This document shows, in pieces, positions 467 to 22,054 of a stretch of DNA of 32,000 nt (position 1 is the stretch's first letter; every line of letters starts with the position of its first letter). The notes beneath the pieces are model-generated. The model saw nothing but the letters and a program-made list of their open reading frames with translations. It had not been told where the DNA came from and searched no databases. The DNA lies in NCBI GenBank assembly GCA_041662745.1, contig JBAZRV010000007.1, positions 9,180 to 41,179 of the forward strand, given 5' to 3'. The position numbers and the translations under genes are program-made. The DNA comes from Patescibacteria group bacterium. Its GTDB lineage: Bacteria > Patescibacteriota > Patescibacteriia > 2-01-FULL-39-33.

Positions 467-988
467 TTACTTACTGCCTGTTTTTCTATTTAAAATCTTA
501 GAGGCGAAACCTTTATCGCTGGCCTTGGCCTTTTTGATCTCCTTTTGGCCTTCCTGTTTGCCGGCAATGTCTTTAAGCTCATCAAATTCTCCGGTGCCAA
601 CCTTGATTATATCAGAGGTGTCAGTCTTTTTCTCTTTTTTAACCTTGCCGGAAGCGACGATTTCCTCTAAAACCACTTTAATCTTAGATGATTCCTTGCG
701 CAACGGGGTGGCGCGTCCAAAGGCTCGGGGTTGCCAACGTTTCAATACCGGACCGGCATCAACAGTAATTGAGGCGATTTTCAAATTATCCGGCGTCAAA
801 TCATAATTCTCTTTAGCGTTAGCGATGGCGGATTTGAGCAATTTCAATAAATCCTTGGCCGCCGCCTTCTGGCTAAAATTTAATTGCATCAAGGCTTTCT
901 CTGCGGTCAAACCGTTAATCAGATTGGCTACCAACCTCACCTTGCGATAACTTATCCTCAAATTGTTCATTTTAGCGATAACTTGCAT
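467..988 (-). CDS. rplV: 50S ribosomal protein L22 with Lys/Glu-rich C-terminal extension
   Basis: MQVIAKMNNLRISYRKVRLVANLINGL...RWQPRAFGRATPLRKESSKIKVVL matches the L22 core. Sits between rpsS and rpsC. Confidence 0.93.
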   Translation of the reverse strand: MQVIAKMNNLRISYRKVRLVANLINGLTAEKALMQLNFSQKAAAKDLLKLLKSAIANAKENYDLTPDNLKIASITVDAGPVLKRWQPRAFGRATPLRKESSKIKVVLEEIVASGKVKKEKKTDTSDIIKVGTGEFDELKDIAGKQEGQKEIKKAKASDKGFASKILNRKTGSK

Positions 989-993
989 ATAAT

Positions 994-1284
994 TTAAACT
1001 TTGGCTCCCTGTTCAATGGCTTTTTGGATTTTACCGCCATGACGGAAAAACTTCTTAGTCGGAGAAAATTCTCCCAGTTTGTGGCCGACCATATTTTCTA
1101 CCACAAACACCGGCAAATGTTCTTTGCCATTATGCACGCCAAAAGTCAAACCAACCATTTCCGGAGTAATCGTGCTGCTTCTAGCCCAGGTTTTAATTAC
1201 AACCTTAGCGCCTTTAGGGGTGCTCTGGACTTTCTTTAACAGTTTGGGATCGACGTAAGGACCTTTTTTAAGGCTTCTAGACAT
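994..1284 (-). CDS. rpsS: 30S ribosomal protein S19
   Basis: [19 protein letters not shown]...[17 protein letters not shown] is the canonical S19 sequence, in conserved operon position. Confidence 0.95.
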
Positions 1285-1347
1285 ATGTGTTAATAATCAA
1301 TAATCAAGACACAATAATCAATTTTCATTTCTTGATTTATTCTTTAA

Positions 1348-1413
1348 TTATTGTATTTTATTTATTGTATCTTATTTAATCTTTTGGTTATTGTATCTTG
1401 GTTATTGTATCTT
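1348..1413. repeat. Short AT-rich repeat array TTATTGTAT(CTT) x4 in the rplB-rpsS spacer
   Basis: Copies at 1348-1356, 1362-1373, 1386-1399 and 1400-1413. The last two are a perfect 14-bp tandem GGTTATTGTATCTT. The left half of the spacer (1292-1321) carries three AATAATCAA-like units. Confidence 0.85.
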
Positions 1414-1418
1414 ATTCT

Positions 1419-2267
1419 TTATTTTTTCTTCTTTCTGGACGGACGGCGATTCAAAATTAATTTACCGGACGCCTTATTTTTCTTTCTGGTTTTAACACCC
1501 AAAGCCGGCTTGCCCCAAGGGGTCTTAGGATGCTTTAATCCGATCGGATTAACGCCTTCACCGCCGCCATGAGGATGATCAACTGGGTTCATAACCTTGC
1601 CCCTAACTGTCGGCTTGATGCCCCGATGACGCATTCGCCCAGCCTTGCCCCAGCGAATATTTTTGAAATCAGGATTAGACACCGTGCCAATAACCGCTAA
1701 AGCCGTTTCCGGCACCAAACGGACTTCTCCGGAAGGCATCTTAAGTTGGGCAAAACCGCGATCAAACCCCATCAAATTAACACCGGTACCGGCACCGCGG
1801 GCCAACTGACCGCCGCGGCCAGGCAAAATTTCTACGTTATAAACAACGACACCGGCGGGAATATGCTTAAGAGGCATGGCATTGCCCGATTTATATTCAA
1901 TCTTGTTTTGCGAACTCAAAACACTTTCACCAACTTGCAAATTCTGAGGCGCCACAATATAACGTTTCTCGCCATCAGCGTAAGCCAATAAAGCAATGCG
2001 GGCGTTTCGTCCCGGATCGTATTCAATCGTTTTAACGATAGCGGGCACATCAAACTTATCGCGACGATAATCAATGACGCGGATCTTCTTGTTGGCCCCG
2101 CCGCCCTGATGGCGTACGGTGATTTTTCCCTGAGAATTACGGCCGGCCATGCGTTTAGCTGAAATCAATAAAGACTTTTCCGGCTTAGTGGCGGTAATGT
2201 CTTGGCGGGTCAAAATAGAAGTTTGCCGACGCCCGGGAGTTGTTGGTTTGTAAATCTTGATGGACAT
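1419..2267 (-). CDS. rplB: 50S ribosomal protein L2
   Basis: MSIKIYKPTTPGRRQ...VMNPVDHPHGGGEG is the canonical L2 sequence. Has a basic C-terminal tail. Confidence 0.96.
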   Translation of the reverse strand: MSIKIYKPTTPGRRQTSILTRQDITATKPEKSLLISAKRMAGRNSQGKITVRHQGGGANKKIRVIDYRRDKFDVPAIVKTIEYDPGRNARIALLAYADGEKRYIVAPQNLQVGESVLSSQNKIEYKSGNAMPLKHIPAGVVVYNVEILPGRGGQLARGAGTGVNLMGFDRGFAQLKMPSGEVRLVPETALAVIGTVSNPDFKNIRWGKAGRMRHRGIKPTVRGKVMNPVDHPHGGGEGVNPIGLKHPKTPWGKPALGVKTRKKNKASGKLILNRRPSRKKKK

Positions 2268-2272
2268 ATCTG

Positions 2273-2710
2273 TTATTTAATACCTTCGTAAACATTAATC
2301 GACTTGCCTTTGGGTAGGGTGATGATGGCTTTTTTCCAATTTTTACGTTTGCCAAACCGTTGGCCGAAACGGACAAACTTGCCGCGCACGTTTGAAACAT
2401 TGACACTCAGCGGCTTCAAACCGTAACGGCTTTCTACCGCCTTCTTAATTTCATTCTTAGTCGTCTTGGCATCAACCGCAAAAACATATTGATTGCTGGC
2501 TTCTCCGGAAGCGGTCTTTTCTGTCAATAAGGGAGCAATCAAAACACCGTAAACCGAGGCCTTGGCACTGTTTTTTTCAGTGCCGGTCTTAGCGATCTTT
2601 ACCGTTTTGCCGGTCTTAGCGGTCCTGGCCTCGTCTTTGGCCTCAACAACTTTTTCTACAGCGACCTTCGGCTCTTCTTCTTTGGTTGTTTTTTTATTAA
2701 ATAAACCCAT
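2273..2710 (-). CDS. rplW: 50S ribosomal protein L23 with ~50-aa Lys/Glu/Thr-rich N-terminal extension
   Basis: L23 core LLTEKTASGEASNQYVFAVDAKTTKNEIKKAVESRYGLKPLSVNV. Start moved to ATG 2710-2708, just after the rplD stop at 2715. The tracked ORF up to 2872 overlaps rplD and is an artefactual extension. Confidence 0.85.
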   Translation of the reverse strand: MGLFNKKTTKEEEPKVAVEKVVEAKDEARTAKTGKTVKIAKTGTEKNSAKASVYGVLIAPLLTEKTASGEASNQYVFAVDAKTTKNEIKKAVESRYGLKPLSVNVSNVRGKFVRFGQRFGKRKNWKKAIITLPKGKSINVYEGIK

Positions 2711-2714
2711 ATAC

Positions 2715-3443
2715 TTACTTGGTCTTAGCCTTGGCAGTCTTAGTCTTTTTGACCTTAGCGACCGCGACTGCGGACTTTTCTTTAGTTTTTTCTTTAACTT
2801 GTTTATAGACTTTATCAATTTCTTCCACCGACTTAATGCCAACCAATAAAGCGTCGGCCTTAAGCAAATCAACGCAATTCAGGCTCTTAGCGGAGATCGT
2901 CGCCACACCTTTAAGGTTTTTAGCGGCGCGAATCAGCTTATCATCTCCTTCGCTCATCACCAACAAGAACTTCTTACTCTCTTTCAATCCGGCAATCGCT
3001 TTCTTGATATTCTTAAACCAAACATTCAAATCTTTGGTTTTGCCGGCGGGATTTTCCAATTTATCAAAAATAAACAGATCTTTATTGGCGGCCTTATCGG
3101 ATAAGCACATGGCCAGAGCGGCTTGTTTCATTTTTTTGTTCACTTTTTGAGTGAAGTTGCGATCATTCCTCGGACCGAAAGTTACGCCGCCGCCAACCCA
3201 AATCGGGGAACGGGTGGAACCGTGACGAGCACGGCCAGTGCCTTTTTGGCGCCAGGGTTTTTTACCGCCTCCACGCACCTCGGCCCGGGTCTTGGTATGA
3301 GCCAGCACTTCGCGGGAATTAGCTTCTTGAGCGATTACCACCTGATGGACTACGGCCGGATTGACTTCACGGCCAAACAACCGAGCGGGCAGCTCGACAT
3401 CTTTTATTTGTTCGCCTTGATAATTGTATACGGGAAATTTCAT
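2715..3443 (-). CDS. rplD: 50S ribosomal protein L4 with Lys/Ala/Thr-rich C-terminal tail
   Basis: MKFPVYNYQGEQIKDVELPARLFG...GGGKKPWRQKGTGRARHGSTRSPIWVGGGVTFGP is canonical L4. The internal ATG at 3443 is preferred over 3473, which would translate the repeat-containing spacer. Confidence 0.9.
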   Translation of the reverse strand: MKFPVYNYQGEQIKDVELPARLFGREVNPAVVHQVVIAQEANSREVLAHTKTRAEVRGGGKKPWRQKGTGRARHGSTRSPIWVGGGVTFGPRNDRNFTQKVNKKMKQAALAMCLSDKAANKDLFIFDKLENPAGKTKDLNVWFKNIKKAIAGLKESKKFLLVMSEGDDKLIRAAKNLKGVATISAKSLNCVDLLKADALLVGIKSVEEIDKVYKQVKEKTKEKSAVAVAKVKKTKTAKAKTK

Positions 3444-3481
3444 ACTTATATATGGCTTATGGCTTACGGCCAATAGCTTAT

Positions 3482-4318
3482 TTATTCTTTTACTTCTTCA
3501 ATTTTATTTTCTTCAATCGGCTTCAACTCAGCGACAGCCTCTTCCTTAGATTCAGCAACGACTTCTTCCCGAGGTTCCGCCTTAATCTCAGTATCCGCCT
3601 TAATCTCAGTAATTGAATCTTCGGCGCTTTTTTCTACCGGAACTTCTTTAGTAATTTCTTCGGGAATTTCTTTCACCGATTCTGGTTGTTTGATTATCAT
3701 CTCGCCCGGACCGTAAATCATGATTAAACCATGGCGAGCTCCGGGAACGGCGCCCTTAACATAAAGAATGTTTTTTTCCGGCTCAACGGCAATAATCTGA
3801 AGTCCGGACACGGTAACCTGTTCATCGCCCATATGTCCAGCCATTCTCTTGCCCTTAAACACACGTTGCACTCCGCCGGCACCGATAGAACCGGGCATTC
3901 TTTCTTGATCCTTATGGCCATGGGAAGAATTCTGGCCATGAAAACCATGGCGTTTAACCACGCCTTGGAAACCCTTGCCCTTAGATTGGCCGGTCACGGT
4001 AACCGCATCGCCCTCGGCAAAAACTTCAACAGTAATAACATCGCCGCGTTTAACACCGGCAACCTCCTTATCGGTCAAACGGAATTCGCGGACGGTTTTA
4101 ACCGGCGGCAAGTCTTTCAAATGACCGATTCTGGATTTACCCGGCTTTTTATCAACGCCAAAACCGACTTGGACGGCATTATAACCATCCTTACTATCGG
4201 CTGACTTGACCTGAGTAACGACATTGGGCAAAGCCAAAACCGCCGTTACCGGGACAACCATACCGTCTTCCTTGTAGAGTTGGGTCATTTCTACTTTTTT
4301 TCCTAAAATGAATTTCAT
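3482..4318 (-). CDS. rplC: 50S ribosomal protein L3 with ~70-aa acidic C-terminal extension
   Basis: MKFILGKKVEMTQLYKEDGMVVPVTAV...KGKGFQGVVKRHGF is the L3 core. The tail is EIPEEITKEVPVEKSAED...KIEEVKE and contains a perfect 18-bp tandem duplication at 3576-3611. Confidence 0.93.
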   Translation of the reverse strand: MKFILGKKVEMTQLYKEDGMVVPVTAVLALPNVVTQVKSADSKDGYNAVQVGFGVDKKPGKSRIGHLKDLPPVKTVREFRLTDKEVAGVKRGDVITVEVFAEGDAVTVTGQSKGKGFQGVVKRHGFHGQNSSHGHKDQERMPGSIGAGGVQRVFKGKRMAGHMGDEQVTVSGLQIIAVEPEKNILYVKGAVPGARHGLIMIYGPGEMIIKQPESVKEIPEEITKEVPVEKSAEDSITEIKADTEIKAEPREEVVAESKEEAVAELKPIEENKIEEVKE

Positions 4319-6397: not shown

Positions 6398-6754
6398 TTA
6401 ACCGTTTACCGGCTCAAAGTAGTACCGATCTTCATCTTGTATGTCTCGATCATTTTGGCTAAATTCAGATAAAATCTCTTCATCAGGGACAACTCCGATA
6501 TCTCTGGCAAAATTATACTGATCCACTGACAATTCCCTTAGCTCTTGATTATCCTTCCAAATAGCGATATCACGATTTATTTTATCTAAAAGTTCATCTT
6601 CTGTCAAGCCCGAGACGCCAGATTTGCCTAAAATTAAATCTTCATAATCAGCGACAGTCATAATAACATAGCCCGGTTCGCCGTGCTCATCCAAAACAAT
6701 GGCCTTATCACCTGTTTTTTTGAGTAAATTTACTAATTTAGTAAGATTGGGCAT
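6398..6754 (-). CDS. Hypothetical protein with Phd/YefM-antitoxin-like N-terminal region and acidic C-terminus
   Basis: KAIVLDEHGEPGYVIMTVADYEDLI resembles the Phd/YefM beta-hairpin/helix signature (judged by eye). No SD and no adjacent toxin-like ORF. Confidence 0.6.
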   Translation of the reverse strand: MPNLTKLVNLLKKTGDKAIVLDEHGEPGYVIMTVADYEDLILGKSGVSGLTEDELLDKINRDIAIWKDNQELRELSVDQYNFARDIGVVPDEEILSEFSQNDRDIQDEDRYYFEPVNG

Positions 6755-7057: not shown

Positions 7058-7762
7058 ATGAAAGAGTATGGACCACGCCGTGTCTTACATGTTAGATTCA
7101 TAAACGATGGCGAAGGAGATATAAAGGATTTCAACAACAATGGCTCCGTCCTACGCATCGCGGATGAAACCTTCCTGACGGCCATGAAAACCCTGGGCGA
7201 AAAACTTGGCCGAGCCGATCTGGACGCCCTGAGATGTGATGATGGTAGCGTATTGCTAACCGACCCGCCGTGTTTTGGCGGAACAATAAAAGTGGCGGAA
7301 AGATGCCTAACCGAAGCCGACATTTTTTTCCAGAAAATACCGCGCATTCCCAAGGCGGAAGAACTGTCGGAGTATATTGATAACATCAACGGTTGTCGGC
7401 ATTTGTTCAAGCCGCTGCCGTTCGGGTACGGCTATCGGTACGACTACGCCTGTCTGGAAATCGGCGTACAACTGGGAACCGTCGAAACTATGGGGGCGCT
7501 AGCTACCATATACCGGGTCAGACGCTACCGCCAAGAGTTTGTTGGCGATAAAAATCAAATCGTTGCGGGGGAAATAAAATACGGTCACCGCAACGCTCCG
7601 CGTGATTTGATTGATGTCTTCGGTTGTTGCCTCCTACTTTGTCAGGGCAACATAAAAAAAGCCCAACAAATGAGTGGGAGTTCTTACGTTAAGTGGGGAA
7701 TTCATGACCTCACAAAAAAGGCTTTTAACATGATGCGCGAGGAGGCTGCCAAGACCGCCTAA
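7058..7762 (+). CDS. Hypothetical Cys-rich protein (234 aa), no family recognised
   Basis: Has its own consensus promoter, SD AAGGAG 9 nt upstream, and an intrinsic terminator right after the stop. It is one of only two coding islands on the plus strand in the left 17 kb. Confidence 0.75.
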   Translation: MKEYGPRRVLHVRFINDGEGDIKDFNNNGSVLRIADETFLTAMKTLGEKLGRADLDALRCDDGSVLLTDPPCFGGTIKVAERCLTEADIFFQKIPRIPKAEELSEYIDNINGCRHLFKPLPFGYGYRYDYACLEIGVQLGTVETMGALATIYRVRRYRQEFVGDKNQIVAGEIKYGHRNAPRDLIDVFGCCLLLCQGNIKKAQQMSGSSYVKWGIHDLTKKAFNMMREEAAKTA

Positions 7763-10714: not shown

Positions 10715-11020
10715 ATGGACAAAGCCGATTGCGAACGACTACAACAAATCATTGAAACGCTTGCCGAACTGCCTAAGGTTGGAGAAAAGGTTTTGCTGTA
10801 TTATCACGCAAGCAAACACTCAGTAAGCTCGTTTCAAATGCAAGAAATCTCGCATATTTCAGGGGATTGTAATGGTATATACTTTTTTTATATCAATAAC
10901 AACCAGCAATTTCTAGTTTTTGATCAGACTTCCAAATTATGGCATTTAGCTGGGTTAGCCAGTCGATCAATTTCGGTTATCTGGGGTGAAGAATTGAAAC
11001 CCGACTTTAATCCTGATTAA
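10715..11020 (+). CDS. Hypothetical protein (101 aa), no family recognised
   Basis: SD AGGAGG (10701-10706) lies 8 nt upstream of the ATG. Has its own promoter and is followed by two hairpin terminators. Confidence 0.7.
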   Translation: MDKADCERLQQIIETLAELPKVGEKVLLYYHASKHSVSSFQMQEISHISGDCNGIYFFYINNNQQFLVFDQTSKLWHLAGLASRSISVIWGEELKPDFNPD

Positions 11021-11037: not shown

Positions 11038-11070
11038 CCCTCGGACACTGCGATCCGAGGGTTTTATTTT
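11038..11070 (+). terminator. Intrinsic terminator after the 101-aa ORF
   Basis: CCCTCGGA (11038-11045) / TCCGAGGG (11054-11061), 8-bp stem, then TTTTATTTT. Confidence 0.85.
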
Positions 11071-11080
11071 CAAACAAAAA

Positions 11081-11113
11081 TACTCCGACATCTGCCGGAG
11101 TATTTTTTATTTG
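11081..11113. terminator. Bidirectional intrinsic terminator (serves fusA on the minus strand)
   Basis: TACTCCG (11081-11087) / CGGAGTA (11096-11102), flanked by an A-tract upstream and TTTTTTATTT downstream. Lies 7 nt beyond the fusA stop. Confidence 0.8.
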
Positions 11114-11119
11114 ATATTT

Positions 11120-13252
11120 TTAGCGTCTTTCTTCTTTCTTGCCTTGACGACCTTCAATAATCTTCATTTCCACATTTTTCGGTACTTCCATGTATCTGGA
11201 AAATTCCATGGAATAATTGGCGCGGCCCTGAGTCATGGAACGCACAATGGTGGCGTAGCCGAACATTTCGGCCAGCGGCACCTGGGCGCTGATAACCTTA
11301 ACAGCCGAAGCGCCGACACCGCGGTCTTCCATCGAGCTAATGACGGCGCGGCGCGCGTTCAAATCACCGATAACATCGCCCATAAACTGTTCCGGGGTGG
11401 TTACTTCCACTTTCATTACCGGTTCCAAAATAACCGGAGTGGCGCGCTTAGCGGCATCCTGCAAAGCCATGGAGGCGGCGATTTTAAAGGCAGCTTCAGA
11501 CGAATCAACTTCATGGTAAGAACCGTCATAAACGGTAACCTTAACGTCAATCAAGGGATAGCCAGCCAGAATACCACGTTCGGTCGCCTCTTTGGCGCCC
11601 TTCTCAATCGGCTTAATGAATTCACGGGGCACGGCGCCGCCTTTGATTTCGTCAGCAAAGACAAATCCCTGATTCGGTTCAGACGGTTCCACCCGCAACC
11701 AGCAATGGCCGTATTGGCCGCGACCGCCGGATTGGCGGATATATTTGCCTTCGGCTTCCGCCTTGCCTTTGATGGTTTCGCGATAAGCGACTTGAGGCTT
11801 GCCAATATTGGCTTCCACCTTAAATTCACGCTTCATGCGATCCACGATAATATCCAAATGCAATTCGCCCATGCCGGAAATAATGGTCTGACCAGTTTCC
11901 TCATCGGTGTGAACGCGGAAAGTCGGATCCTCTTCAGCCAGTTTAGACAAAGCCAAAGCCATCTTTTCTTGGTCGGCTTTGGTTTTTGGCTCAATCGCAA
12001 TATCAATGACCGGATCGGGAAATTTAATTGATTCCAAAAGTATGGGGAAAGACGGATCAGACAAAGTATTGCCGGTAGTGACGTCTTTAATACCGACTAA
12101 AGCGGCGATTTCTCCGGCATACACCTCGTCAACTTCTTCGCGCGAGTTAGCATGCATGCGCAAAATGCGGCCGATGCGTTCTTTATTGCCGGTTTTATTG
12201 TTAATAATATAGGAACCTGATTTCAAAATACCGGAATACACGCGATAAAACACCAATTTTCCAACAAACGGATCGGTGGCAATCTTAAACGCCAAACCGG
12301 CCAAAGGCGCATCATCGGAAACAACTAAGGGTATCTCTTTTGTTTCATCATCAACACTATGGCCGATGGGAGCCGGGACCTCCAAGGGGTTGGGCAAATA
12401 TTCGGCAACGGCATTAAGCAAAAATTGCACGCCCTTATTCTTCAGGGCGCTGCCGCATAATATCGGCACGAGTTTATTGGCGATAGTGGCTTTTCTTAAG
12501 GCCCTCTTCAAATCAATCACCGGCACTTCTTCACCGGCCAGATATTTTTCCATCAAAGTTTCGTCAGTTTCCACAATGGCCTCCACTAATTTGTGGCGAT
12601 ACTCCTTGGCTCTCTCTAGTTCGTCAGCCGGAACATCAGTGATCTCCCATTTGGTTCCCAAATCATCGGAATAAACTTCCGCCTTCATTTCAAACAAATC
12701 AATAATGCCGGTGAAAGTATCGGCGGCGCCGATCGGCAGTTGAATCGGATGGGCATGGGGAGTCAGTCGATCATAAATTGATTTAAGATCATTATAAAAG
12801 TTGGCGCCCATGCGATCCATTTTATTGACGAAACCAAGCTTAGGCACATGATACTTCTCTGATTGGCGCCAAACGGTTTCCGATTGCGGTTCCACGCCGG
12901 CTACGCCGTCAAACACAATGACGCCGCCGTCCAAGACGCGCAAAGAACGCTCCACTTCAGCAGTGAAATCCACGTGGCCCGGGGTATCAATCAAATTGAT
13001 CTGGATATCTTGACCGCCCAGCCAGTCGGCGTTAGGCCAATAACAAGTGGTAGCGGCCGAGGTAATGGTGATACCGCGTTCGCGTTCTTGCTCCATCCAA
13101 TCCATAGTGGCTTCGCCCTCATGGACTTCACCGATTTTATGTTTCTTTCCGGTATAAAAAAGAATGCGCTCGGATACGGTGGTTTTGCCGGCGTCAATAT
13201 GAGCGATAATACCGATGTTTCTAATTCTTTCTAAAGGTGTTTTACGGGGCAT
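11120..13252 (-). CDS. fusA: Elongation factor G
   Basis: 710 aa with [24 protein letters not shown] and NKMD. The 306-aa + ORF 11111..12031 is its antisense shadow. Confidence 0.96.
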
Positions 13253-13298
13253 ACTGGTTAATTACAAATTACGAATTAATAATTACAAATTTTTACTG

Positions 13299-13358
13299 AT
13301 AAATATTTAAATTTTATAAAACTTTTTGGAAGAGGCGAAAGCACGAGCTGTCGCCTCG
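13299..13358 (-). repeat. Copy 1 of a 60-nt conserved stem-loop element, downstream of the second small-ORF pair
   Basis: ATAAATATTTAAATTTTATAAAACTTTTTGGAAGAGGCGAAAGCACGAGCTGTCGCCTC differs at one base from 14148-14207. Stem GAGGCGA/TCGCCTC (7 bp) plus inner AGC/GCT. Confidence 0.9.
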
Positions 13359-13375
13359 AAAAAGAAAAAAATAAA

Positions 13376-13675
13376 TCAACTTCCACCAGCTAAATAATAC
13401 AATTTCAATGAGTCCATTTCTTCTAATTCCGTCTCGCTCATACCCTTGACCGCTTTAATAAGTTTCCTTGCCCAAGCCAAGGCTTCTTTCTTTGATTTGA
13501 AATTGTGGTTTGTCTCAAATAAGATCTCGCCGTGATACTTAATGCATGCATCAAACTTACCTTCATGACGAGTACGACGACTTGACGCTGATGTGTCTGG
13601 CCCCTCAGATTCACAATGAAGATCTTTCTTGGGTTTCGACTTAATAGTCATTAAAGCAAACATACTTAACATCAT
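13376..13675 (-). CDS. Small paralog B2 (99 aa from ATG 13675; tracked TTG start 13699 is less likely)
   Basis: SD AAGGAG 6 nt upstream of ATG 13675. Shares the core ILFETNHNFKSKKEALAWARKLIKAV with the three neighbouring ORFs. Confidence 0.8.
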   Translation of the reverse strand: MMLSMFALMTIKSKPKKDLHCESEGPDTSASSRRTRHEGKFDACIKYHGEILFETNHNFKSKKEALAWARKLIKAVKGMSETELEEMDSLKLYYLAGGS

Positions 13676-13701
13676 GGCTTTCTCCTTTTTGGCTGTCAAT
13701 A

Positions 13702-14031
13702 TTAAGGCAATCTTAGAATAATTACTCTATTCTGTTTATCGGGATCAACCTGGATAGCTCTGCCCTTACTAAAAGTATGAGATTTCGGCGGTAATCCTTT
13801 TAATAGATCCAATAACCTATTGCCCCACTCAGTTGCTTCTTTAGGAGTTTCAAATACGGCTTCGGTATGTAAAATGGGATGATCAAAATTATCATTCAGG
13901 CATAAACAGGACGAAAATCTAAACTTAACTTCTCCGCCATCATGGCCAATGAACCGACCAAATCTTACCGTCAAAGAATCCAATTCTGATTTGCTAATAC
14001 TAACCCCCAGTTCAGCCTGACTAACTTCCAT
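13702..14031 (-). CDS. Small paralog A2 (109 aa)
   Basis: SD GGGAGG 8 nt upstream. Core motif PILHTEAVFETPKEATEWGNRLLDLL. Confidence 0.8.
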   Translation of the reverse strand: MEVSQAELGVSISKSELDSLTVRFGRFIGHDGGEVKFRFSSCLCLNDNFDHPILHTEAVFETPKEATEWGNRLLDLLKGLPPKSHTFSKGRAIQVDPDKQNRVIILRLP

Positions 14032-14147
14032 TGCCTTTCCCTCCCATCAGTTGATTTTTTCTTTTAAGGTTCAAAGTTACGAGTGATTTGCTATTCCCAC
14101 CAAGAATCGGCACAATATTTCATGCATTCGCGTTTTGAATACAAACA

Positions 14148-14207
14148 ATAAATATTTAAATTTTATAAAACTTTTTGGAAGAGGCGAAAGCACGAACTGT
14201 CGCCTCA
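14148..14207 (-). repeat. Copy 2 of the 60-nt conserved stem-loop element, downstream of the first small-ORF pair
   Basis: 59/60 identical to 13299-13358 (single G/A difference in the loop). Confidence 0.9.
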
Positions 14208-14212
14208 AAAAA

Positions 14213-14554
14213 TCAACCTATATTTAATTCGACAAACTCCTTACCGTTTTCCTTGCTTAATTGGGATAAAATCCAAATTAAATTAGAGCATTTGTCACCC
14301 CAATCCGTGGCTTTTTCCCAAGAATCAAAAACTGATTTTGTTTCCAGTATGGTAGTGGTCTGAATTGGCAATTTTCTACAACTTTCTTTGCGCTTGTCAT
14401 CACAAATACCGCCAGGACAAACGCCTTCACATTGATAAATACGAACTCGATATTTGGCTTGACGCTTGTTTTTTTTAGAACAGCCAATTTGTTTTACCTC
14501 ATAATGCAATGGCTGATCAGCGGTGAAGCTTATGGTTCCGGAAAATCCGATCAT
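14213..14554 (-). CDS. Small paralog B1 (113 aa) with a Cys-rich insert
   Basis: ATGA overlap with A1 and SD AAGGAG 7 nt upstream. Core TTILETKSVFDSWEKATDWGDKCSNLI. Insert is QCEGVCPGGICDDKRKESC. Confidence 0.8.
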   Translation of the reverse strand: MIGFSGTISFTADQPLHYEVKQIGCSKKNKRQAKYRVRIYQCEGVCPGGICDDKRKESCRKLPIQTTTILETKSVFDSWEKATDWGDKCSNLIWILSQLSKENGKEFVELNIG

Positions 14555-14898
14555 GGTTTTTCTCCTTGTTCGGCTTCGGCCAACTTTTCTTCCAAAGCAA
14601 CAACTTCATTTATAATCTTTTCCATTCTGGCCCATTTCTCCGCAGGAATATTCTCTTCAAATAATTCCACTTCCGGTTCCGTTCTAATCGCATTAACAAA
14701 TCTTTCTGCCCAAGATATAGCCTGTTCTGCCGAATCGAAAATATCATTAGTGTTGAGAACTGGCCGATGGTATTCACCATAGTTATAAAGATTTATCCAA
14801 GCGACAAACTTGCCCCCCTTCTTTGACGGCCCACCAGCATCGCACTTAACATCATCACCACGATTCTGAATAACTAGAAAATCAATCATAGACAGCAT
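14551..14898 (-). CDS. Small paralog A1 (115 aa)
   Basis: SD GAAGGAG 7 nt upstream. Core PVLNTNDIFDSAEQAISWAERFVNAI, followed by an acidic helical tail. Confidence 0.8.
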   Translation of the reverse strand: MLSMIDFLVIQNRGDDVKCDAGGPSKKGGKFVAWINLYNYGEYHRPVLNTNDIFDSAEQAISWAERFVNAIRTEPEVELFEENIPAEKWARMEKIINEVVALEEKLAEAEQGEKP

Positions 14899-14968
14899 AT
14901 TTCTTCTCCTTCTAGTTGATTTTTTGTTTTAAAGGTTCAAATTACTTATTACTTGTTACGTATTACTT

Positions 14969-15436
14969 TTATCTGGAAAAATGCGCAAAGGCCCGGTTGG
15001 CTTCGGCCATTCTGTAAGTGTCTTGCTTCTTCTTGATGGCAGTACCCTCGCTATTGTAAGCGGCGATCAATTCTTCTGCCAACTTAACGGCCATGCGCCG
15101 GCCTCTTTTGGCCTTGGCGGCGCCGATAATCCAACGGCAGCCCAAAGTATAACTGCGGGAAGGACGGACAGCCATCGGCACTTGATAGTTGGCGCCACCA
15201 ACGCGGCGACCCTTGATTTCCACGGTCGGGGCGGCATTCTTGATGGCCGTATCAAACACAACCAAAGGATCAACTTTTGTCTTATCGGAAATAATTTCTA
15301 AGGCTTCGTAAACAATACCCTTGGCGACGGACTTTTTGCCGCGCTCCATGATATAATTGATAAATTTAGCGATATCCTCGCGGTTATATTTCTCATCGGG
15401 AGCAATCGCTCTTTTTGTTGCTGGTTTACCTCTCAT
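14969..15436 (-). CDS. rpsG: 30S ribosomal protein S7
   Basis: MRGKPATKRAIAPDEKYN...VEIKGRRVGGANYQVPMAVRPSR...RMAEANRAFAHFS is canonical S7. Confidence 0.96.
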   Translation of the reverse strand: MRGKPATKRAIAPDEKYNREDIAKFINYIMERGKKSVAKGIVYEALEIISDKTKVDPLVVFDTAIKNAAPTVEIKGRRVGGANYQVPMAVRPSRSYTLGCRWIIGAAKAKRGRRMAVKLAEELIAAYNSEGTAIKKKQDTYRMAEANRAFAHFSR

Positions 15437-15544: not shown

Positions 15545-15973
15545 TTATTTAGCGGCCTTCTTCTCTTTCTTCATTCCATACAAGCTACGACCGCGCTTGC
15601 GATTAGCCACGCCGGCGGAATCATAGACACCGCGGACAATGTGATAACGGACACCGGGCAAATCCTTGACTCTGCCGCCACGCACCATAACAATAGAGTG
15701 CTCTTGCAGATTATGGCCAATGCCGGGGATATAAGCAGTAACCTCCTGGCCGTTAGACAAACGGACACGGGCAATTTTACGCAAAGCGGAGTTCGGCTTT
15801 TTCGGCGTAGTGGTTCTTACAACCGTGCACACGCCACGCTTAAAGGGATTGCCTTTCTGCATGGTGTGTTTACGGCGATGCAAACTGTCCAAAGTAGTCT
15901 GGATATCAGGCGTTTTTGATTTTGCAACTTTGGGCTTGCGACCCTTCTTAAGTAATTGGTTTATTGTAGGCAT
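15545..15973 (-). CDS. rpsL: 30S ribosomal protein S12 (with ~14-aa insertion near the N-terminus)
   Basis: [13 protein letters not shown]...[31 protein letters not shown]...[17 protein letters not shown]. Confidence 0.95.
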
Positions 15974-21397: not shown

Positions 21398-22054
21398 TTA
21401 CTTGAGATTAAAGCGACCGGATAACTGCGCCAAACGCGCCAATAGGTAATCAAGATTGCATTTTGTTTCGCAACTGTCAATGCCATCATCATCGGCAGGC
21501 AAATCCAAAAGGTCAGGTGAGAACCCGCTTTCGTTGGCATTAATCAGGCTGATTTCCATGGCAGAAAATTGTCCGGTTTCCGACATGGCCTCAGCGATAC
21601 TTCCGCCATCTTTGACAGAATCATGGATCTTTTCTGCCGCCTCCCGCAGTGGAGCATCCAATCGTTTTGAACTTTCTTTCAATGCTTGCAAAATAGGTAC
21701 ACCGAGAAAAAGCAACCTGCTTAAAATCTGATAAAAAGATTCATACTGATCAGCGCGGGAATAAATCGAGCCGTCGACAATGTAATGCATCGCCAAGGGC
21801 ATGGTTCCGCCGGTTTCTCCGCTTCTGACAGCGCACACTTCCAGATCTGAAAACATTGAAGACGCGCTTAAGGCCTTCGAAAAAGACAATCCCCCTCTAA
21901 CATCTTCAATGATTTTCTTAATACCGCGGTCAAAGTCATTAGTAGCGGATAATTGACTGTAAATAACGTTCAATGCTTGCATCAGTGTCAAATTCAAGTC
22001 CAATAAATTTGCCAGATCAAACCAAAACATCCGATATTGCATGGCTCGTGTCAT
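21398..22054 (-). CDS. Soluble tandem T2SSF-domain protein (PilC/GspF cytoplasmic domains without TM segments)
   Basis: Two repeats match the platform-protein signature. Repeat 1: FWFDLANLLDLNLTLMQAL...DVRGGLSFSKAL...VRSGETGG. Repeat 2: FYQILSRLLFLGVPILQAL...SVKDGGSIAEAM...INANESG. No hydrophobic stretch is long enough for a TM helix. SD AAAGGAGG 6 nt upstream. Confidence 0.7.
   Translation of the reverse strand: MTRAMQYRMFWFDLANLLDLNLTLMQALNVIYSQLSATNDFDRGIKKIIEDVRGGLSFSKALSASSMFSDLEVCAVRSGETGGTMPLAMHYIVDGSIYSRADQYESFYQILSRLLFLGVPILQALKESSKRLDAPLREAAEKIHDSVKDGGSIAEAMSETGQFSAMEISLINANESGFSPDLLDLPADDDGIDSCETKCNLDYLLARLAQLSGRFNLK

Follow-up and report, generated by a model that had tools for sequence, protein, structure and literature searches.

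The window analysed here is a stretch of 32,000 nucleotides from a Patescibacteria group bacterium (contig JBAZRV010000007.1, positions 9,180 to 41,179) that contains, on the minus strand, the str operon genes rpsL, rpsG and fusA, encoding ribosomal proteins S12 and S7 and elongation factor G (EF-G). Four small open reading frames (ORFs) fill the 1.7-kb gap between rpsG and fusA, on the same strand as the three operon genes: A1 (14551–14898, 115 amino acids) and B1 (14213–14554, 113 amino acids), which overlap in an ATGA, followed by A2 (13702–14031, 109 amino acids) and B2 (13376–13675, 99 amino acids). All four were confirmed at the positions assigned to them in a preliminary description of the locus. 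We find that the rpsG–fusA spacer is a fixed position at which cassettes of standard build, seemingly without promoters, form a strain-variable array, with at least two unrelated families of small proteins as cargo. The four-gene arrangement recurs in independent ENA, Logan and NCBI/JGI assemblies and is therefore not an assembly artefact. The G+C content is 37–40% in the spacer, compared with 46–50% in the flanking genes. The array is framed by conserved flanks, rpsG upstream (14969–15436) and fusA downstream (11120–13252), and rpsL (15545–15973) is the first gene of the operon; genes in syntenic loci match PF00164 (rpsL, in L001, L085 and L113), PF00177 (rpsG) and, for fusA, likewise Pfam.

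The content of the spacer differs between relatives of the closest clade, which is Candidatus Buchananbacteria-like (S7 74–100% identical). The survey for one or more such cassettes that the preliminary description had proposed returned arrays of zero to four genes at the same site in eight or more related genomes. The nearest species (L006–L009) have no cassette; L085/L110 and L086 contain a single A1-like gene, L107 and L004 a single B1-like gene (encoding P0006 in L004), and L005/L108 and L109 a single gene for a coiled-coil protein with a C-H-C-C motif. L088 combines an A1-like with a coiled-coil gene and L001/L111 a coiled-coil gene with A2, and the window has four genes. P0008, P0009, P0016 and P0007 are encoded directly after rpsG, the first two by the sole rpsG–fusA gene of their loci. 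Turnover is visible within one species: contig L107 and the window have flanks that are 96–98% identical in nucleotide sequence and S7 and EF-G segments that are 100% identical in amino acid sequence (rpsG being partial), and the single B1-like gene of L107 shares only 33% identity with B1. One sample harbours both the four-gene array and a single A1-like variant. The closest complete genome, L001, lacks A1 and B1 but has the A2 cassette in common with the window, at a dS of 0.14 (91% nucleotide identity), far lower than the dS of rpsL, rpsG and fusA (0.52–0.92, at 85–87% nucleotide identity); this cassette has therefore had a history separate from that of its flanks. A2 is 91% identical to its L001 orthologue P0005 with a dN/dS of 0.29, which points to purifying selection on the family genes where this can be measured. 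Because relatives carry other cassettes or none, we regard the spacer as a strain-variable accessory site and not as a constant component of the translation apparatus.

The second orphan family found within identical cassette ends is unrelated to the first (L005 5587–5868, L088 673–891, L001 5546–5818, L109 2251–2523). Its members, here termed CC-Zn, have 72–93 amino acids, with a coiled coil at the N-terminus and a probably zinc-binding motif, C-x-H-x-W...C-x-x-C-G, that is conserved. The L109 copy has an in-frame TGA at codon 11 (~2281–2283), for which a pseudogene, a sequencing error or recoding are possible explanations. Across 80 Patescibacteria species the rpsG–fusA spacer measures between 3 and 2982 nt, and in distant lineages (L076, L027, L067, L011 and L030) it contains GIY-YIG, PD-(D/E)XK_3, PaaX/Cas2-like and tRNA_bind genes, with a weak YafQ-like toxin match in L030. 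The spacer is thus an accessory-gene hotspot throughout the phylum.

Every cassette of the clade has the same layout whatever its cargo: a leader that ends in (A)AAAAATCAAC(C/T), a Shine-Dalgarno (SD) site, one or two small ORFs and (G)TTGATTTTT. The conserved part of the leader is ∼26 nt long and ends in AAAAAATCAAC; its inverted copy at the cassette end, GTTGATTTTTT, usually contains the TGA stop codon and is followed on its 3′ side by a stem-loop (GAGGCGR-loop-YCGCCTC), by TTCCAA and by AT-rich sequence. In the window (all features on the minus strand), cassette 1 starts with the leader TTTGAACCTTTAAAACAAAAAATCAACT and an AAGGAG SD site (14899–14941; left inverted-repeat arm 14915–14926) and ends with the right arm GTTGATTTTTTG (14206–14217), which includes the B1 TGA stop and is complementary to the left arm at 12 of 12 positions. 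The first copy of a 65-nt 3′ boundary element follows (14148–14212), with its stem-loop (14181–14206, GAGGCGA-N12-TCGCCTC), TTCCAAAAAG and an AT-rich tail. Cassette 2 has the leader TTTGAACCTTAAAAGAAAAAATCAACT with a GGGAGG SD site (14032–14093; left arm 14049–14065), the right arm AGTTGATTTATTTTTTT (13365–13381), again including a TGA stop, that of B2, and the second 65-nt copy (13299–13363, stem-loop 13332–13357). A 45-nt leader repeat (73% identity) lies 5′ of A1 and A2 and has no other copy in the window, and the two 65-nt elements, after B1 and after B2, are 97% identical and absent elsewhere in the 32 kb; repeated leader and trailer together delimit two units 849–865 nt apart. An inverted repeat of 10–14 nt joins leader and trailer in 10 of the 11 cassettes, a length matched by shuffled sequences in 0–3 of 300 trials. 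Cassette 1 of L001, a variant, has its own co-varied pair (14/14 nt), unlike the arms of the other cassettes.

The borders of the array carry direct repeats. The repeat upstream of cassette 1 (14938–14964, minus strand) contains GTAAT three times, at spacings of 7 and 14 nt, and recurs with identical spacing just 5′ of the fusA start (13265–13291, minus strand); these are the only two 100-nt bins of the window with at least three GTAAT. In L001, TAACCAGTA is found just after rpsG and again just before the fusA start, which suggests that an old short spacer was duplicated upon insertion. An additional repeat, 'element X', is an imperfect palindrome of ∼130–150 nt (AAGTCGCGCC...GGCGC) in rpsG–fusA spacers, without a match in Rfam. 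It is seen on both sides of the L107 cassette (two inverted copies), in L006 (4046–4177), L109 (2595–2783) and L088 (962–1031); a remnant between the two window cassettes (14095–14131, minus strand) is 81% identical to the L107 copy over 37 nt. It stands alone in the cassette-free L006 and accompanies some cassettes elsewhere.

The preliminary description had noted a conserved RNA hairpin after each gene pair, and the 97% identical copies and the compensatory changes across cassettes bear this out. In an alignment of the stem-loops 96.5% of cells are paired, with compensatory changes at three pairs, compared with 47–64% in slid controls; the stem comprises 7+3 bp and the loop 5–33 nt. G·U pairs are valid on the sense strand only, and the structure thus points to the RNA level. 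As an intrinsic terminator the stem-loop was rejected: it has no U-tract, is followed by UUCCAAAAAG and was not flagged in a terminator scan. No promoter-like or terminator-like sites were found at the cassette ends. A canonical hairpin-plus-U-tract terminator (AAAAAATACTCCGgcagatgtCGGAGTATTTTTGTTT, ∼11070–11105, minus strand) is located just after fusA and conserved in L001, which shows that terminators of the classical kind, from which the cassette stem-loops differ, are in use in this genome.

The stem-loop element appears to be confined to this site. A pattern scan of JGI metagenomes located it in five loci, all five at rpsG–fusA, and in a 957-kb genome the pattern matched once, with a second, variant copy at the same site. 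A covariance model run over 763 kb around rpsG from 89 sources returned no additional copy. The element was thus rejected as a dispersed repeat or miniature inverted-repeat transposable element, as it occurs at this site only. Rfam searches at the gathering threshold and at E≤1 gave nothing relevant, and the 13 matches of the stem-loop pattern in IMG/VR were all chance matches in G+C-rich DNA.

All four genes (4/4) have an AAGGAG or GGAGG SD site 6–8 nt 5′ of the start. The preliminary description had set these strong sites against SD-less neighbours, and among the ∼31 other ORFs of the window we count comparably strong sites in three and weak GGAG or AGGA motifs in two; the genome is otherwise mostly devoid of SD sites. 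Loss of the anti-SD motif has been reported for many Parcubacteria (PMC9297842). Strong SD sites may mark accessory or imported genes in such an SD-poor genome. The only other ORFs of the window with a strong AAGGAG site are 10715–11020 (plus strand), 7058–7762 (plus strand) and 21398–22054 (minus strand); the first two have no Pfam match and sit in the fusA–valS gap and beyond valS, in regions that vary between relatives. SD spacing also informs two start codons. For B2, the ATG at 13675 is preferred over an upstream TTG at 13699, in agreement with NCBI model P0001. For A1 (start region 14889–14898), the NCBI model of 112 amino acids omits the first three codons; we favour the ATG at 14898 because of its SD spacing and the N-termini of homologues. 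Elsewhere in the window, a 118-residue ORF between tuf and the valS region (6398–6754, minus strand) gives a weak PhdYeFM antitoxin match (E=0.011, below the cut-off).

Judged by sequence comparison, A1, B1, A2 and B2 are real genes of one distantly related orphan family. Pairwise BLASTP gives E values between 1e-5 and 3e-11 in five of six pairs (B1–B2, E=0.03) and aligns the same ∼25-residue core in all of them. A hidden Markov model (HMM) built from six homologues from other metagenomes only, with the window proteins excluded, scores A1 at 109, B2 at 48, A2 at 23 and B1 at 9 bits, the best of 1000 shuffled sequences reaching 5.0 bits; the core that the preliminary description had seen in all four proteins is upheld by both comparisons. 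Identity among the four is 38% or less, and they fall into three subtypes: A1/B2, A2 and B1. A1 and B2 are the closest pair (32% over 91 amino acids) and both begin with M(M)LSM, the N-terminus of their subtype; an IQxRGxDxxCxAGGP motif is kept in A1 and its homologues. The B1 subtype has a four-cysteine insertion and a final strand. Since the closest pair is A1–B2, the A and B labels do not denote two orthologous pairs.

The family is small. A word-indexed search of 5.8 billion proteins recovered only the four proteins themselves, P0005 and P0006, and a second word-indexed search found no further members. Six further A1-like proteins (P0007, P0008, P0009, P0015, P0016 and P0018) came to light when 1.84 billion cluster representatives were searched exhaustively with a profile, and we estimate the family at about a dozen clusters among these representatives. 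All members are stand-alone proteins of 75–116 amino acids. The isoelectric point (pI) is 4.6 for A1, 6.4 for A2, 8.75 for B1 and 8.9 for B2, and A1-type members range from 4.6 to 6.6 except for the truncated P0007 (8.7). The remaining matches of the exhaustive search are long repeat-containing proteins, some of which share the strand-helix motif only and others of which look like chance. Among these, P0011, P0013 and P0014 matched the core at E values of 1e-4 to 1e-6 and were considered as relatives, but we treat them as motif-level resemblance only; the match most likely reflects a shared motif, not common descent. Their repeat units read VVCLETGEVFES..EAA.WAG...GGYHWxY, and P0013 also has a GIY-YIG-like N-terminus. 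P0015 and P0018 are A1-like proteins without the conserved Trp, encoded away from rpsG on short contigs (L091 84–1173 and L092 3–697) among tiny, overlapping, Cys-rich ORFs. They may represent copies of the family on mobile elements or phages; neither has a PHROG or phage-database match, and tblastn of P0015 against phages found nothing.

AlphaFold2 models of A1 and B1 predict a core of three strands and a helix for the family. The A1 model, built on a 12-sequence family alignment (predicted local distance difference test, pLDDT, 83; predicted template modelling score, pTM, 0.72), comprises a helix (residues 4–12), three strands (17–22, 31–39 and 42–49) and two further helices (57–72 and 86–112). 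The B1 model (pLDDT 75, pTM 0.66) has three N-terminal strands, a Cys-rich loop, a strand (66–71), a helix (79–102) and a final strand (107–112); its core consists of strands 33–42 and 66–71 and helix 79–102 together with further strands. The models thus share a predicted strands-plus-helix core and differ in their periphery. The preliminary description had suggested fold prediction and a Foldseek search: a common core is indeed predicted, and no significant fold match was obtained, as neither model has a match at E<0.1 in PDB or BFVD. The A1 list is topped by double-stranded RNA-binding domains (dsRBDs) and pY/HPF (E≥1, probability ≤0.25, template modelling score (TM) ≤0.37, none significant); COMM-domain matches are non-significant as well.

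The earlier statement that no family can be assigned stands. Searches of Pfam, NCBIfam, PHROGs and PADLOC with the four proteins and with 12 family members returned nothing significant (DUF3622, Stealth_CR4 and Arm-DNA-bind_4 appear below threshold only), and a sequence-profile search of PDB gave no match. Membership of YegP/DUF1508 or of the dsRBDs, to which the pattern had been likened, was not supported: DUF1508 has no match in Pfam or NCBIfam, HPF no profile match either, and dsrm none among 12 members at E≤1 or the four window proteins at E≤10. A1 does share with dsRBDs the helix-strand-strand-strand-helix order of its model, and B2 an SKKEA helix start. However, B1-type proteins begin with strands and not with a helix, and the basic KKxAK-type helix start of dsRBDs is not seen in the acidic A1-type proteins, SKKEA being confined to B2.

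Phage tyrosine integrases provide the nearest similarity, a weak one at the sequence level, with their arm-type N-terminal domain, which binds DNA. PF14657 (Arm-DNA-bind_4) matches residues 59–77 only of B2 with 19.0 bits (E=1e-3; cut-off 22.3). Shared features are a three-strand sheet packed on a helix, present in the AlphaFold2 models, a GK[FWY]xAxI strand and the helix start F-[DE]-[ST]-x-[EK]-x-A-x-x-W. In contrast to the integrase arm, the proteins studied here remain below the cut-off, are stand-alone with ∼100 amino acids, carry additional elements at both ends (a helix or strands at the N-terminus), and are often acidic; a fusion to the core-binding and catalytic domains of a recombinase was not seen in any family member. 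A tblastn search matched residues 5–46 of two Roseobacter phage integrases (E=0.02), and hhalign aligned the N-terminus of the CRP-118 (Roseobacter phage) integrase with a probability of 87% (48% identity over 42 columns). Pfam assigns no family to this N-terminus itself, and a search for its relatives gave two fragments only, too few for a profile.

We favour the view, to which we give about an even chance of being correct, that the rpsG–fusA spacer is an accessory hotspot whose promoterless cassettes encode dispensable orphan binding proteins and pass between genomes by recombination. Read-through from the str-operon promoter would transcribe the cassettes, and their own SD sites would direct translation. 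The stem-loop could serve as an mRNA stabiliser, a processing point or a mild attenuator before fusA, and not as a full terminator. Gain, loss, duplication and swapping among related lineages would occur by homologous recombination, for which the conserved cassette ends and the highly conserved flanking genes could provide the homology; the organism encodes ComEC-type DNA uptake, with ComEC in the window, which we note alongside the proposed exchange. The proteins are most likely dispensable small modules with an integrase-arm-like core that bind nucleic acid or protein, possibly in conflict with phages or hosts.

Several observations weigh against this reading. The 10–14-nt inverted repeats and the direct repeats at the borders could mean site-specific insertion. 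Most family members are acidic, which disfavours DNA binding. Matches to PF14657 are confined to 2 of the 12 family members, all of them sub-threshold, the top 50 Foldseek hits listed include neither an integrase N-domain nor an AP2 structure, and hhalign to the AP2 domain of plant ERF1 (with an approximate query sequence) gave 0.4%. A1-type genes persist at the exact site down to ∼79% S7 identity, which makes a functional link to the operon possible. Finally, no recombinase or transposase was found among the scanned ORFs of the window; six ORFs at 467–4318, judged from their position to be ribosomal-protein genes, were outside the scan.

A rival proposal makes the proteins lineage-specific translation-associated factors: they would bind S7, EF-G, whole ribosomes or the stem-loop RNA, and a place in the str operon would coordinate their synthesis with that of the translation apparatus. 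We consider this unlikely, as we do a dedicated ribosomal role or partnership with S7 or EF-G in general. The proposal would fit the A1-type genes, which occupy the rpsG–fusA spacer in five or more distinct genome contexts, co-oriented with the operon and with no promoter or terminator of their own found; streptococci and Pelagibacter are known to have RNA structures 5′ of fusA (PMC2965389). The helix-three strands-helix order of the A1 model, the dsRBD and pY/HPF entries among its non-significant top matches and the basic B1 and B2 (pI 8.8–8.9) agree with it as well. Yet the genes are present, absent or replaced among strains with identical S7 and EF-G segments, the closest complete genome has neither A1 nor B1 and the nearest species have no cassette. 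The unrelated CC-Zn family also occupies the spacer, as do nuclease and Cas2-like genes elsewhere in the Patescibacteria; the A1-type proteins have a pI of 4.6–6.6, dsrm, DUF1508 and HPF profiles do not match, and every fold match has E≥1 and TM≤0.37. A ribosome- or RNA-associated function had been read from the location in the preliminary description: the operon location and the hairpin are real, but the functional conclusion is weakened by strain turnover, unrelated cargo, acidic proteins and the absence of a significant profile or fold match.

The repeats at cassette ends and borders could also be explained by site-specific capture, either in an analogue of an integron or in a transposon-derived array, with a recombinase encoded elsewhere and a fixed attachment site before fusA. 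We hold this to be quite unlikely, although there are parallels to integron arrays and to clusters of attC sites lacking integron-integrases (CALINs): small promoterless ORFs in the same orientation, each followed by a conserved, imperfectly palindromic structured element, a single upstream promoter (which would here be that of the str operon), strain-variable length (0 to 4 genes in our case), and highly similar ends around unrelated cargo of mostly unknown function. The inverted repeats at the two ends of one cassette co-vary, and the array is bordered by direct repeats of the former spacer (GTAAT three times in the window, TAACCAGTA in L001). TTGAT directly 5′ of a subterminal hairpin recalls the left ends of IS200/IS605 elements. 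The details differ, however. An IntI-type integrase, not required for a CALIN, is not among the scanned ORFs, nor is a transposase, and the neighbours encode S12, S7, EF-G, valyl-tRNA synthetase and other housekeeping proteins. We rejected the cassette ends as attC sites by their box arrangement, since R″(RYYYAAC)...R′(GTTRRRY) is not matched: the R″-L″/L′-R′ layout is missing, GTTGATT...AATCAAC is arranged opposite to the R″ and R′ boxes with GTT and AAC outside (by inspection, one base off the GTTRRRY consensus), and in place of the long bulged stem there is a much shorter one of 7+3 bp. Its G·U pairs are of RNA type and favour a structure at the RNA level, again without an Rfam match. The last cassette has no right-hand arm, no target-site duplication was seen, the array occupies one fixed site inside an essential operon, and neither the 957-kb genome nor 763 kb of related DNA has the element at any other site. 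A more novel reading, likewise improbable, is that Patescibacteria of this clade have a dedicated cassette platform that works like an integron, in which standard ends (co-varying terminal inverted repeat and stem-loop) would let promoterless small genes be captured, duplicated and shuffled at the one fixed str site and expressed at ribosomal-protein levels, the cargo being new families of small proteins, stand-alone integrase-arm-like domains among them, for conflict with phages or hosts.

Distinctly unlikely in our view is that the array arose by tandem duplication in place, with very fast divergence of the proteins, ordinary translation and RNA-stability signals as ends and no exchange between genomes. 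The preliminary description had seen the four genes as a duplicated A-B pair, and they are indeed paralogous, lie in two repeat-defined units 849–865 nt apart and, for A2, evolve under what looks like ordinary, somewhat relaxed purifying selection (dN/dS 0.29). The duplication of a pair does not hold, as A1 is closest to B2, A1-types and B1-types occur alone, and the ends are 97% identical against 38% or less for the proteins, a difference that requires conversion or recent import. Duplication in place is also at odds with a dS of the A2 cassette much below that of the flanking genes, with the different single cassette of same-species L107 and with the CC-Zn family inside identical ends. Two toxin-antitoxin or phage-defence pairs, A1–B1 and A2–B2, are very unlikely, for although the genes are small, paired (with the A1/B1 ATGA overlap) and strain-variable, join a lower-pI A (4.6 and 6.4) to a basic B (8.75 and 8.9) and have a weak YafQ-like match in the L030 spacer as company, both partners come from one family, A1-type or B1-type genes are found singly in L085, L086, L004 and L107, and no PADLOC match and no Pfam toxin or antitoxin match was obtained.

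The hotspot that we favour resembles phage morons and core-gene hotspots in that extra genes of variable content stand between conserved genes, with a history decoupled from their flanks, and selfish-type genes (GIY-YIG, PD-(D/E)XK, Cas2-like) occupy the same spot in other lineages. A promoter and a terminator usually come with a moron, whereas the cassettes described here appear to have neither, carry standardised ends and reside in the chromosomal S12-S7-EF-G operon and not in a phage.

In the literature searched, genes located between rpsG and fusA are not described for bacteria of the candidate phyla radiation (CPR), and to our knowledge the mobile-element biology of the phylum is almost unexplored. 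The S12-S7-EF-G operon belongs to the most conserved gene strings of bacteria, and a variable array of standardised cassettes inside it is unexpected. With it come two new orphan families of small proteins and an RNA stem-loop whose conservation includes compensatory changes. If the cassette ends were recombination sites, they would represent a new kind of gene-capture system. More generally, the array would show that the ultra-small, recombination-dependent genomes of CPR bacteria use a near-invariant gene gap, bordered by sequences with which the DNA of any relative can recombine, as a site where accessory genes land and are expressed.

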